From Caldisericia bacterium (GTDB lineage Bacteria; Caldisericota; Caldisericia; JAAYUI01): a stretch of DNA of 64,000 bases. The notes beneath the pieces are model-generated. The model was not told the DNA's origin and ran no database searches. It worked only from the letters and a program-made list of their open reading frames with translations. Below, piece after piece: positions 27,970-30,889 of this stretch (its first letter is position 1; each line of letters starts with the position of its first letter). A program made the position numbers and the translations under genes. The stretch is taken from NCBI GenBank assembly GCA_963674785.1, contig OY771555.1, forward strand, positions 512,001 through 576,000. The letters are read 5' to 3'.

Positions 27970-28698
27970 CTATGGAACTCCAATCGTAATCCTTTTTGTA
28001 CTGCCGTCCCAAGATACACCTCCACCAATCATTTCAGAGAAAAATCTCGACGGAACATAGGAGGCTCCGTAAATCGATGTAGCAGGCGGGTCACATGTAA
28101 CAGTTTGTCCATTGATAACACCGATATCTGCTCCGAGCTTTATGCTCGAACTCAACTTACCAAGAGTAACAACTATCTCTCTATTCTCTTCATCCCATGA
28201 AACTTCAGCTCCAAAAAAACCAGCAAACTCACGAAGAGGAACCATCGATCTACCTGAAATTATCTTTACAGGATGTGCGAGGCTTCTCGTATCCATGTTT
28301 ACAAACGCAACTCTATCATCGATTGCTGCTGAAACACTGCAATCCCTAAACACAACAATTCCACTCTCAACATATGTGTCAGAGACCTTTGCCTGTAATG
28401 AAATGGAAGTTTTTCCGGCACCAAGAGAGATATTTGAATCGAAATATCCACCGACACAGGGAATTGTTTGTCTGCCAACAGTTGCTCCATCGAGGATTAC
28501 ATCGATGTTTGATATGGACTTATCTGAGATAGAACCTTTTATATAAAGGTTTTCTGATCTGACATGTATCCCTGAGGGTGGGGAATCTATCTTTATCGTC
28601 ACTTCAAATGTCATAGCAACAAACAATAACGCAGCTATCAACAACAGCAGGGTTTTGTGAACAAAGCATGAATTTTTTGTCATTACTTCCCCCTTCAT
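27970..28698 (-). CDS. Secreted protein with Ig-like and copper amine oxidase N-terminal (stalk) domains
   Basis: GRSMVPLREFAGFFGAEVSWD and YVPSRFFSEMIGGGVSWD repeats. Confidence 0.85.
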   Translation of the reverse strand: MKGEVMTKNSCFVHKTLLLLIAALLFVAMTFEVTIKIDSPPSGIHVRSENLYIKGSISDKSISNIDVILDGATVGRQTIPCVGGYFDSNISLGAGKTSISLQAKVSDTYVESGIVVFRDCSVSAAIDDRVAFVNMDTRSLAHPVKIISGRSMVPLREFAGFFGAEVSWDEENREIVVTLGKLSSSIKLGADIGVINGQTVTCDPPATSIYGASYVPSRFFSEMIGGGVSWDGSTKRITIGVP

Positions 28699-28729
28699 TT
28701 ATTTCCTTTTTCCTATATGATAGTTACAA

Positions 28730-29038
28730 ATGAAGAATGTGATAGGTTCAAGTTTTCAAGGTGGATTAAAAGCTCTTGCTGAAACAACACGTCTTAGTAT
28801 TGTGATTTTACTCTCAAAAAATAAAGAATTATCCGTCAAGAAGATAATGGAGGTACTTGGACTCACACAGGTCAAGGCATCTCAGCACTTAAAAGTCCTA
28901 AAATTTCAAGAGATCGTAAACAGCAGAAAAAGCGGTAACAGCACACTTTACTCCATCAATTCAGAGAGGGTACAAGCATTGATTACTGAGTTTCAATCAA
29001 TATTTGATAACACATCTGATTTTCCATTTAAAGAATGA
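28730..29038 (+). CDS. ArsR/SmtB family transcriptional regulator
   Basis: KALAETTRLSI..LL, SQHLKVLK, RKSG...YS. Confidence 0.88.
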   Translation: MKNVIGSSFQGGLKALAETTRLSIVILLSKNKELSVKKIMEVLGLTQVKASQHLKVLKFQEIVNSRKSGNSTLYSINSERVQALITEFQSIFDNTSDFPFKE

Positions 29039-29097
29039 CACCAAATTGAGAAGTCAAAAACCAATTCAATCGAGTCATAATCGAGAGAAATTGAACT

Positions 29098-29150
29098 TGC
29101 TTTTTACTTAAAATGTAGTTATATTGGACTATTGACCCACATGGGGTCAA
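29098..29150 (+). promoter_or_regulatory. Promoter plus palindrome TTGACCC-ACATG-GGGTCAA upstream of the TGA-containing gene
   Basis: TTGCTT...TATATT followed by a 7-bp inverted repeat at 29132-29150. Confidence 0.5.
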
Positions 29151-29214
29151 ATGAAATACTTATGTTAAGAAAATGCTCAGAGATGAGATTCAAAGAGCGG
29201 AAAGGAGCAAGACA

Positions 29215-29736
29215 ATGAAGAAATTTGCAGTATTTGCACTAGTATTTGTCTTTGCGTTAAGCCTCGTTGCTGCCTCTCTCGCCCTTGCCGGTACATACGG
29301 TTGAGGAAGCGGCGGCGGTTGCGTTGCAGCCCCACCACCCCCACCACCAGCAGCGGCTGGAGGAAGCGGAAGTGATGTAGATTTGGCTTCTGACCCAACA
29401 CCAAGTTCATGGTTCAACAATGTGCTTGATGGTGACACAATCACCACCCCATTCACAATCCTTGGTGAGTATAAAGCTGAAGCTCGAATCGACACAATCC
29501 AGGTCTCCCCAGATGGCGGAGAAACATGGCTTACAGCAGAAGTTGACAAAGACACAAGAGAATGGTCACTACACATTGCTTCACCTCCAGGTGAAAATGG
29601 TGTTTACCACCTCATTTCTAGAGCAGTTGACAAAAACGGCAGAATGGAAAGAACAGTCAATCCTAACGTCGATGTCAGTCTCAGAAAAAAGCCAGTCGAA
29701 GCATATATTGTTAGAGCTGGAGCAGGCAGAGAGTAA
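29215..29736 (+). CDS. Secreted Ig-like domain protein with in-frame TGA at codon 30 (candidate selenoprotein)
   Basis: AAGGAG SD; signal peptide MKKFAVFALVFVFALSLVAASLALA; GTYG-TGA(29302)-GSGGGC-PPPPPP in frame with track ORF 29383-29736; domain VSPDGGETW...YHLISRAVD.NG. Confidence 0.7.
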
Positions 29737-29760
29737 AAGTAAAATACTAGCCGCAAACGA

Positions 29761-29791
29761 AAAAAGCCACCCGATGAGGGGTGGCTTTTTT
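29761..29791 (+). terminator. Intrinsic terminator
   Basis: AAAAAGCCACCC-GATGAG-GGGTGGCTTTTTT. Confidence 0.85.
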
Positions 29792-30002
29792 ACATTCTAG
29801 AGAGCTTTGGGAGTCTTTTTTCTTATTTGGCACAAAAGAAGCTTCGATCGATTATAGAGGTAGGAACCACACAATAATTGAAGTTAATAATGATTAATTC
29901 AATATTCATAATCGATTGATTTTTCCATAATAGGCTGTATACTTGTAGCGTAACTCGAATGTTCTCGTAAACCTTTGTATAAAAAACATAGGAGGTTCTG
30001 AC

Positions 30003-30404
30003 ATGGATATGAAATATAGCTACGACAAATCGAATAATATCATGTTTGTAAGTTACAACGGTTTGATCAGTACCACTGATGATTTAAAACAAATGAGAGA
30101 ACTCACCGACCAGATTTATAATGACGTTGCAACAAAAATATGGCTGATTGTTAACATCGCTGAGTACAAGGTGAAAAACCCGATGCTTGTTAAGGAATGG
30201 CAAAAGAGCGGCAAAAAGACCATGGACAAATACGTTATCGACGAAGTGATGATTTGTAAGAATCCCATTCAAAAAGCGATGTCTCTTCTCTTCAACACAA
30301 TTAGAGGCAAAAAGAGTCCTATCTTTAAGTCAAAAGAGGAAGCTGTTGAACACGTTTTAAAGCTACAGGAAACGGTGGGAAAGTCGAAACCTATTATTGA
30401 TTGA
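30003..30404 (+). CDS. Hypothetical protein (STAS/SpoIIAA-like), paralog 1
   Basis: GGAGG SD; YD...NI, WL..N, C-terminal IFKSKEEA.E..L. Confidence 0.65.
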   Translation: MDMKYSYDKSNNIMFVSYNGLISTTDDLKQMRELTDQIYNDVATKIWLIVNIAEYKVKNPMLVKEWQKSGKKTMDKYVIDEVMICKNPIQKAMSLLFNTIRGKKSPIFKSKEEAVEHVLKLQETVGKSKPIID

Positions 30405-30493: not shown

Positions 30494-30889
30494 ATGGAAC
30501 ATAAAGCAGAATACGATCCAATAAAAAATATCCAATTCTTTGAGTTTATTGGGACACCGAGAGACTCAAATGATATTGATTTTCTAGTCAAAAAAAACAT
30601 CGAGGCACTCGAAAAACTAACATCAAGGGTTTGGCTTGTCACAAACTTAGGAAGTATGTCAGCCGCAAGCCCCCCATTACTTGCTGAGTTTGGTCAAAAA
30701 AGCGTGCCTATGGTTGAGAAATATGGAATAGAAGAATTTGTTCACACACACAAAAGCATCCAGAGACTTATGATTCAGATATACAACAATATCTCTGGTT
30801 CAAAAGTCAAGGTATTCAAATCAAAAGAAGAGGCGATAGAATACATACTTGAACGACAAAAAACTGTCGGAGTGATGCTCCCATTCTGA
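30494..30889 (+). CDS. Hypothetical protein (STAS/SpoIIAA-like), paralog 2
   Basis: AAGGAG SD; VFKSKEEAIEYILERQKTVG mirrors paralog 1. Confidence 0.65.
   Translation: MEHKAEYDPIKNIQFFEFIGTPRDSNDIDFLVKKNIEALEKLTSRVWLVTNLGSMSAASPPLLAEFGQKSVPMVEKYGIEEFVHTHKSIQRLMIQIYNNISGSKVKVFKSKEEAIEYILERQKTVGVMLPF

Follow-up and report, generated by a model that had tools for sequence, protein, structure and literature searches.

The gene considered here lies at positions 29215 to 29736 on the forward strand of a stretch of 64,000 nucleotides (nt) from a Caldisericia bacterium (GenBank contig OY771555.1, positions 512,001 to 576,000; hereafter the window, a term that covers the whole stretch), whose genome is assembled as a single contig of 2.23 Mb. 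With a probability of roughly 85%, the in-frame UGA at 29302 of this gene is decoded as selenocysteine (Sec, or U in one-letter code) and the gene has the architecture of a selenoprotein whose family has not been found described.

Between the ATG at 29215-29217 and the TAA at 29734-29736 there is a single in-frame TGA (29302-29304) and, when this codon is read as Sec, the whole coding sequence comprises 173 codons before the stop. The product of such read-through has the layout MKK...ALA-GTYG-U-GSGGGCVAAPPPPPPAAAGGSGS-domain, that is, a signal-peptide-like N-terminus (MKKFAVFALVFVFALSLVAASLALA) followed by GTYG-U-GSGGGC, then by VAAPPPPPPAAAGGSGS and finally by a domain of approximately 120 residues. 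The predicted signal peptide (29215-29289) consists of MKK, a hydrophobic core and ALA, with a putative cleavage site before GTYG; its residues -1 and -3 are small in all homologues, as judged by eye on the alignment, and residues 3-28 form a helix in the AlphaFold2 model. The Sec codon corresponds to residue 30, the low-complexity arm and linker GSGGGCVAAPPPPPPAAAGGSGS extend over 29305-29373, with the partner Cys encoded by the TGC at 29320-29322, and the remainder (29374-29733) encodes an immunoglobulin (Ig)-like beta-sandwich with an Asp-box (SPDGGETW), whose relatives are Big_13 repeats and the domain at the C-terminus of sulfite dehydrogenases. Translation with table 11 breaks this frame into an open reading frame (ORF) of 43 amino acids (aa) that closes at the TGA and another of 117 aa (29383-29736, TTG start), the latter being the C-terminal part of the 173-aa read-through protein. 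The initial annotation of this stretch, which had proposed the read-through frame behind a Shine-Dalgarno (SD) sequence, gave positions for the ATG, the TGA, the hairpin that follows it and the end of the frame, all of them exact on re-reading.

One indication of Sec decoding comes from the relatives of the gene. In a profile search over 93 genomes of the phylum Caldisericota, in which the family of interest is represented by 11 genomes of three genera and six other families by the remaining 82, the gene was found in 11/11 genomes of that one Caldisericia family and in 0/82 of the others. All 11 copies have one in-frame TGA at the same aligned place, and never GGA, TGG or TGC, which answers the question, raised in the initial annotation, of what the aligned codon would be in related genomes. 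A search of 41 related genomes retrieved the gene in 10, each row that spans the position showing exactly one in-frame TGA, and the TGA column is invariant in the nine sequences aligned, in spite of an identity to the window protein of 48-73% across the three genera (48-50% at the lowest). The gene is split by contig ends in two family genomes. In genome G005, the first 600 bases of contig C111 seem to carry about three tandem copies of the 3' end of the gene (...NPNIDLRYRKKSTVVTFVNPGSDNE with its flank, repeated), and this broken gene with its tandem 3' end may stem either from the assembly or from a local duplication.

Other features of the alignment point in the same direction. The terminal stop of the gene is TAA in five and TAG in three of the eight homologues whose 3' end is available, whereas the internal codon is always TGA, a pattern that corresponds to a Sec codon and not to the stop of a small upstream ORF. 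The distance from U to a DPTP motif is 29, 28 or 27 residues with the frame intact, so the indels have preserved the reading frame. Between the closest pair of sequences, which are genus-mates, the differences at codon positions 1, 2 and 3 amount to 7/4/13 before the TGA, 3/3/12 in the linker and 27/16/60 in the domain, and this third-position excess, present before the TGA and also in the linker after it, indicates substitution of the coding type. The arm itself reads G-T-[YF]-[GA]-U-G-[SG]-G-G-G-C in the genus of the window and F-R-P-Y-G-U-C-P in the remaining two; every sequence thus has a Sec/Cys pair, with a spacing of five residues in the former and of zero in the latter. The U-x5-C pair anticipated in the initial annotation therefore holds for the genus of the window and not for the other two, where U and C are adjacent.

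Could the TGA be a true stop? Two separate products would then be expected, a 29-residue peptide (the signal peptide with GTYG) and a cytoplasmic Ig-like domain whose translation begins inside the frame, for instance at the TTG at 29383. Gene callers do confine their annotation to the downstream ORF, this genome uses TGA as an ordinary stop, which closes 230 of 871 ORFs of at least 300 aa (26%), and the hairpin downstream of the TGA is by itself within chance. However, the truncated ORFs proposed by gene callers start at differing places (they measure 117, 137, 119, 91 and 53 aa), so there is no conserved internal start, nor is an internal SD conserved; the linker after the TGA evolves as coding sequence in frame, through three linker lengths, and the TGA of 11/11 genomes stands against the TAA or TAG of the terminal stop. 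Furthermore, the relatives of the domain are repeats of large surface proteins, for which a cytoplasmic form would be unexpected, and the gene is restricted to genomes with selA. Taken together, a true stop is considered very unlikely, and Sec decoding of the UGA continues to be the preferred reading.

That reading requires a dedicated machinery, and the check for it suggested in the initial annotation turned out positive for each component. The genome encodes SelA (533 bits), SelB (317 bits) and SelD (261 bits, with an in-frame TGA of its own), and a tRNA-Sec with the anticodon TCA (69.5 bits) is located directly after selB. Within the phylum, selA exceeds its curated cut-off in 11 of the 93 genomes, which are exactly the 11 family members that bear the gene (0/82 of the others), apart from two weak sub-threshold matches elsewhere.

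A hairpin of the selenocysteine insertion sequence (SECIS) type follows the UGA (29305-29342). It starts 12 nt downstream of the TGA and its apical part is formed by GGTTGC (29317-29322), the loop GTT (29323-29325) and GCAGCC (29326-29331), the loop beginning 18 nt past the TGA; below it, the minimum free energy (MFE) structure continues as a lower stem with interruptions, formed between GGN (Gly) and CCN (Pro) codons with 1x1 mismatches at regular intervals. According to the consensus model of the bacterial element (bSECIS), as given in a 2026 review by Zhang and co-workers (PMC13188914), the loop has 3-9 nt with a G in position 1 or 2, the upper stem has 4-16 bp, the UGA-to-loop distance is 16-37 nt and the MFE is -7.5 kcal/mol or lower. 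The ten sequences that were folded, 10/10, agree with these published rules, a SECIS-like hairpin having been proposed for the window copy in the initial annotation, with gaps of 16-19 nt, uninterrupted stems of 5-7 bp and MFEs of -15 to -21 kcal/mol. The loop is GUU in three of four members of the genus of the window and CGUGU in the fourth, GUG in 4/4 of the second genus and GGC in 2/2 of the third. The apical stems are GGUUGC/GCAGCC, GGAGGCG/CGCCUCC and GGAGCGGC/GCCGCCUCC in the respective genera, and they encode different residues in each (GCVAA, GGGAP and GAAAPP). The poly-Gly/poly-Pro stretch had been described as a linker, which it is, although not simply so, since the SECIS stem is encoded there. 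The peptide may be there for the sake of the RNA structure, or this structure may arise as a by-product of the peptide. Of the TGA read-through candidates from a crude scan of the whole genome, 555 passed a filter for coding score and 12 of these a SECIS-type filter as well, the present gene being third by energy; this SECIS-type filter is not fully sensitive, selD being missing among the 12 that passed.

Leaky read-through of UGA occurs in bacteria, and the UGA might be translated without Sec, either by a near-cognate tRNA (for Trp, Cys or Arg) or under another genetic code, the evidence on the inserted residue being indirect throughout. The latter variant is ruled out for codes 4 and 25 by the 26% of long ORFs that TGA closes. 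As for near-cognate decoding, it is at odds with a complete Sec machinery that, within the phylum, is confined to the family bearing the gene, and with a hairpin whose position and loop G are those that the SECIS model demands; moreover, a partner Cys is found next to or near U in all sequences, as in many selenoproteins (PMC13188914). This possibility is regarded as remote in comparison with decoding as Sec.

The base call itself is supported by independent data. Of 20 sequencing runs that contain some part of 28700-30000, four, labelled as wetland and crude-oil metagenomes, were aligned to the region. An independent DNA contig (run X3) spans 28976-29985 with the TGA unchanged, and two contigs from RNA libraries (29184-29347 and 29266-29353) bridge the TGA without difference, which speaks against a sequencing error at 29302. 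In three RNA libraries, which stem from different studies, the contigs are limited to 29184-29758, with no flanks, starting at 29184 and ending at 29752-29758; besides backing the TGA base call, they hint weakly at a unit that is expressed and monocistronic. A nonsense pseudogene or a sequencing error, for which nothing speaks other than the in-frame stop itself, is practically negligible in view of the same TGA in 11/11 genomes of three genera and in independent DNA and RNA-library contigs, flanked on both sides by substitutions of the kind left by purifying selection.

With respect to the C-terminal domain, the initial annotation had called it Ig-like and similar to a domain of sulfite oxidases, and this is what both structure and sequence support. 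The AlphaFold2 model (from a 9-sequence alignment) is a beta-sandwich with a predicted local distance difference test (pLDDT) score of 70-80 in the domain and below 50 for residues 24-70. The top Foldseek matches of the model are sulfite dehydrogenases/oxidases (E 2e-5), VIA-align superposes it on 2blf with Z 9.2 and a root-mean-square deviation of 2.0 over 87 residues (unrelated Ig-like and fibronectin type III-like domains come next, with Z 8-9), and a search of the PDB with the family profile finds SorT (E 2.8e-6), with a match that runs over the Asp-box. Residues 64-171 have their best structural and sequence matches in the C-terminal domain of sulfite oxidases and dehydrogenases (SorT, SorA, SoxC and the chicken enzyme) and in Big_13/Asp-box Ig-like repeats. 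In sequence-family databases the signal is weaker: Big_13 (PF19077) and Mo-co_dimer (PF03404) stay below their Pfam cut-offs (16.3 bits versus 27 and 15 bits versus 22.7, respectively), and three family members searched against NCBIfam (E up to 10) give weak matches to the C-terminal parts of SorA, SorT and SoxC only. A HMMER scan of 1.84 billion representative sequences returned 565 matches; of the best 150, 145 are long proteins in which the profile matches 2-37 stretches, and the other five are orthologue fragments of 53-119 aa that start past the TGA. When five of the long proteins were run through Pfam, Big_13 appeared above cut-off in four, Mo-co_dimer in four and BNR/Asp-box in two. The Asp-box S-x-D-G-G-x-T-W is common to the domain and to Big_13/Asp-box Ig-like repeats, and the domain is thus an Asp-box Ig-like module of the type used in bacterial surface proteins, in agreement with the predicted export. 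A divergent relative of the domain, P0092 (86 aa, from a metagenome, in five contigs), has FDGNVFYP in place of the Asp-box; a scan of genome contigs with it as query found nothing.

Unlike sulfite oxidases, the 173-aa protein does not contain the molybdenum cofactor (Moco)-binding domain PF00174, according to Pfam. The sole ORF of the genome with PF00174 (190 aa, 2216892-2217464 on the forward strand, 124.8 bits, with the motif HCVTGWS) has neither signal peptide nor dimerisation domain and lies 1.68 Mb from the gene. A sulfite oxidase split over two genes is consequently unlikely, with its only Moco-domain ORF that distant and without a signal peptide.

Is the family already known under another name? 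Table 1 of the review by Zhang and co-workers comprises 119 selenoprotein families and subfamilies, Ig-like, Big_13 and Mo-co_dimer domains being absent from all of them, as are arms of this kind, and the nearest motifs in it are those of DUF1573 (UGC), the UGSC-containing protein, the hypothetical protein DG (GUxG) and the 'CU' metal-linked families (PMC13188914). DUF1573 (PF07610) does not match the 173-aa protein at E up to 1, and no selenoprotein model in the NCBIfam copy searched, which would be expected to include those of the UGSC-containing protein (NF041046) and DG (NF049953), matched three family members at E up to 10. Literature that joins selenoproteins or selenocysteine with the phylum names offered nothing relevant, although the supplements of BSepDB or of deep-Sep could list the family, and public records annotate the gene solely as a truncated hypothetical protein. 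The initial annotation had recognised no described family of such an architecture, and this stands as far as that Table 1 and NCBIfam reach. The authors of deep-Sep note that their pipeline may miss selenoproteins without Cys homologues (PMC12013277), and such a blindness would explain why the family has been overlooked.

A scan of genome contigs with the alignment as query produced at least 23 relatives, two of them full-length (both of the same class) and 21 with the domain only, one of the latter being an 835-aa multi-repeat surface protein. In the metagenome contigs, at least 593 pattern matches were reduced to 16 relatives, which share only the Asp-box domain (query residues 59 onward) and none of which is orthologous.

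How the gene would work can be outlined from these elements. The gene 29215-29736 would be transcribed as a monocistronic unit and ribosomes would start at the ATG 29215. SelB, recruited together with tRNA-Sec by the hairpin 12 nt downstream, would decode the UGA at 29302 as Sec, and translation would go on to the TAA at 29734; the SECIS stem would be formed by codons of the linker itself, namely those of the Gly-run, of Cys/Ala and of the Pro-run. The product would be exported through the general secretory pathway and its signal peptide removed, leaving as mature N-terminus a short disordered arm, which reads G-T-Y-G-U-G-S-G-G-G-C in the window protein and R-P-Y-G-U-C-P in the sister genera. 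This Sec/Cys arm would be joined by a spacer of Pro, Gly and Ala to the Ig-like Asp-box domain, which may act as an anchor or docking module. Under selenium shortage, termination at the UGA would leave the signal peptide and four residues only, so the level of the protein would track the selenium supply.

Regarding function, the variable spacing between U and C argues against a rigid catalytic site and favours a role in the capture or transfer of a soft electrophile, or a simple selenenylsulfide couple. The motif suggests, as a proposal rated slightly below an even chance, that the selenolate/thiol pair could be an extracytoplasmic flexible site for the capture or transfer of such an electrophile, for example polysulfide or elemental sulfur, some form of selenium or a thiophilic metal; metal-linked families often have adjacent Cys/Sec motifs (PMC13188914). 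A selenenylsulfide redox couple is conceivable as the function and is put forward more tentatively.

A number of observations weigh against the interpretation defended here, and they concern the homologues, the hairpin, the expression data and the function. The 11 family genomes are kin and represent one evolutionary origin. Among the matches listed, there is no full-length homologue in which Cys or some other residue takes the place of U, and Cys homologues aligned with Sec are the usual supporting criterion in the field, most bacterial selenoproteins having been found via Cys/Sec pairs (PMC12013277). The protein search gave three matches, all cut after the TGA, and the best 150 of the 565 HMMER matches include five proteins under 300 aa, all of which start past it. 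As for the hairpin, its z-score in the window is -1.22, with 26 of 200 dinucleotide shuffles at least equally stable, and in nine sequences 28-92% of 1000 synonymous recodings with the codon usage of the genome equalled or exceeded the native stability; whatever the codons, a run of Gly and then one of Pro yields such a hairpin, and there is no signal at synonymous sites. Across genera no strict compensatory change was seen in a sequence-based DNA alignment in which the stems are misaligned, and within a genus there are only one-sided changes. The Rfam scan of 29150-29850 found no SECIS family, only weak terminator-like matches at 29753-29794. The contigs of the RNA libraries show neither transcript ends nor translation, and RNA libraries may contain DNA. 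The model of the domain is middling (mean pLDDT 57 for the protein), the gene neighbourhood is not kept across genera, and the ArsR-type protein encoded upstream, being devoid of Cys, gives no hint of a metal. Finally, the proposals for function are argued from the motif alone and are held with low confidence. Due to the lack of excess stability over shuffles and recodings, the energy of the hairpin is not used as evidence here: alone, the hairpin is within chance, and it is the recurrence of the same TGA, in an ORF with a signal peptide and with a hairpin, in 11/11 genomes that goes beyond chance.

The gene also has its own expression signals, as had been described for it. Upstream, a promoter-like site (29132-29160, forward strand) consists of TTGACC, a spacer of 17 nt and AATACT, with TG before the -10 box; it has 9/12 matches to the consensus, in a region that yields three such sites against 1.7 expected. 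Its -35 box lies inside a genus-wide motif (TTGGACTATTGACC), and TTGG[AT]C[TC][AG]TTGAC is present upstream of the gene in 4/4 homologues of genus g1. The SD sequence AAGGAG (29202-29207) is placed 7 nt upstream of the ATG; GAAAGGAG precedes ATG and MKK in eight of nine listed homologues, the ninth, of genus g1, having GAAAGGAA, and it is also present in the split G005 copy. Downstream, an intrinsic terminator (29760-29791) is formed by GCCACCC/GGGTGGC with an extension of A/U pairs and a T-run. This terminator is strong (-22 kcal/mol, z -4.41, equal stability in one of 200 shuffles), and a hairpin with a T-run is seen by eye downstream of seven of the eight homologues that have a 3' flank. 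Promoter-like site and terminator together bracket the gene. A perfect inverted repeat, TTGACCC-ACATG-GGGTCAA (29132-29150), overlaps the -35 box as a possible operator. The closest homologue, which also has an ArsR-type gene upstream, does not have this repeat.

As for the surroundings, a gene for an ArsR/SmtB-type helix-turn-helix protein (28730-29038, PF01022, E 3e-9) precedes the read-through frame by 176 nt on the same strand. The protein has zero Cys and is not a classical thiolate metal sensor. Among genus-mates the upstream gene is of the ArsR type in two of four and MerR-like in a third, and in the other genera the neighbours are unrelated. Metal sensing via this gene is accordingly not supported: the protein lacks Cys, the regulator stands upstream in only two of four genus-mates and in none of the other genera, and the inverted repeat at 29132-29150 is missing from the closest homologue. 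Divergent from the ArsR-type gene, on the reverse strand (27970-28698), is the gene for a 242-aa exported protein with a part resembling the N-terminal domain of copper amine oxidases (PF07833, E 6e-33) and an Ig-like part. Two genes further downstream on the forward strand (30003-30404 and 30494-30889), of 133 and 131 aa, have weak DUF7793-like matches and look paralogous by eye, and in genome G001 two ORFs of similar size and look are located upstream of the homologue (locus positions 395-775 and 831-1226).

What other selenoproteins does the machinery of this genome serve? Among the common selenoprotein families searched in it, only selD was found. FdhA (TIGR01553) and the molybdopterin oxidoreductase PF00384 gave no match in the window genome, with positive controls; GrdA and GrdB gave none either, but here the controls were silent too, which makes this a weak negative, and the matches of MvhD do not contain TGA. 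A second candidate is a PQQ-like/BamB-like beta-propeller of 676 aa (contig positions 1492973-1495000, forward strand, TGA at 1493975), with an N-terminal hydrophobic stretch, Pfam matches to PF13570 and PF13360 and the context VGT-U-DKHIYCLSG. Its best-matching homologues in 10/10 other genomes of the family (11 rows) each contain a single in-frame TGA, accompanied in one case by a TAA, and at five loci VGT-U-D..YCL[SD]G is kept along with a hairpin UACUGCC-loop-GGCAGUA approximately 20 nt past the UGA. In this protein, U occupies the place of W, Y or F in other blades, and no such beta-propeller family is included in Table 1 of the review mentioned above (PMC13188914). A paralogue of 384 aa (contig positions 1075355-1076506, forward strand) has its TGA (1075718) at the equivalent place, within VNS-U-TTFKMLCLSG, followed by an 8-bp hairpin with a GUC loop, and has one TGA-bearing orthologue, in genome G009. 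The conserved TGA and hairpin of the propeller candidate suggest that the SelB of this lineage serves extracytoplasmic proteins. It is a speculative possibility, on balance doubtful, that this one Caldisericia family keeps its Sec machinery mainly for a private extracytoplasmic selenoproteome composed of the arm protein and the PQQ-like propellers, the arm being an exposed selenolate site for the capture or transfer of sulfur, selenium or thiophilic metals.

If the interpretation as a selenoprotein is correct, Sec would have an extracytoplasmic position, in a disordered arm at the N-terminus, the gene would exemplify a coding-region SECIS housed in a Gly/Pro linker, and a family without a Cys form would illustrate a blind spot, being invisible to methods based on Cys/Sec pairs. 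Together with the propeller candidates, it bears on a broader question: why does a lineage without the searched-for selenoenzymes (formate dehydrogenase and glycine reductase) retain the costly Sec machinery?

In comparison with known systems, the gene resembles those with a SECIS inside the ORF, of which fdhF from E. coli is the type case, in that it combines a UGA, a loop at 16-19 nt with an early G, a stem of 5-7 bp and the Sec machinery; it differs from them in that the stem is made of Gly and Pro codons of a low-complexity linker, which renders peptide and RNA structure inseparable, and in that no Cys homologues are known. Animal thioredoxin reductase carries a flexible C-terminal Gly-Cys-Sec-Gly arm that shuttles redox equivalents, and the vicinal Cys/Sec on a flexible terminal arm would be shared with the present protein, as an analogy only: that arm is C-terminal and cytosolic and belongs to a flavoenzyme, whereas the one described here is N-terminal and would be exported, with no redox partner known. 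Most characterised selenoproteins have a thioredoxin-like fold with a redox motif (PMC13188914). In the same source, the Cys/Sec-pair selenoproteins thought to bind metals or organometals are SaoC, MbdU, SaoL and HgcA ('CU'), the CopZ family ('GxUC'), DUF1573 ('UGC') and the UGSC-containing protein. No sequence relationship to these families was seen, and the pair described here sits in a disordered N-terminal arm instead of a folded site; nonetheless, they have a Cys neighbouring the Sec, as the present family does, and some of them are transport-associated or exported (PMC13188914).

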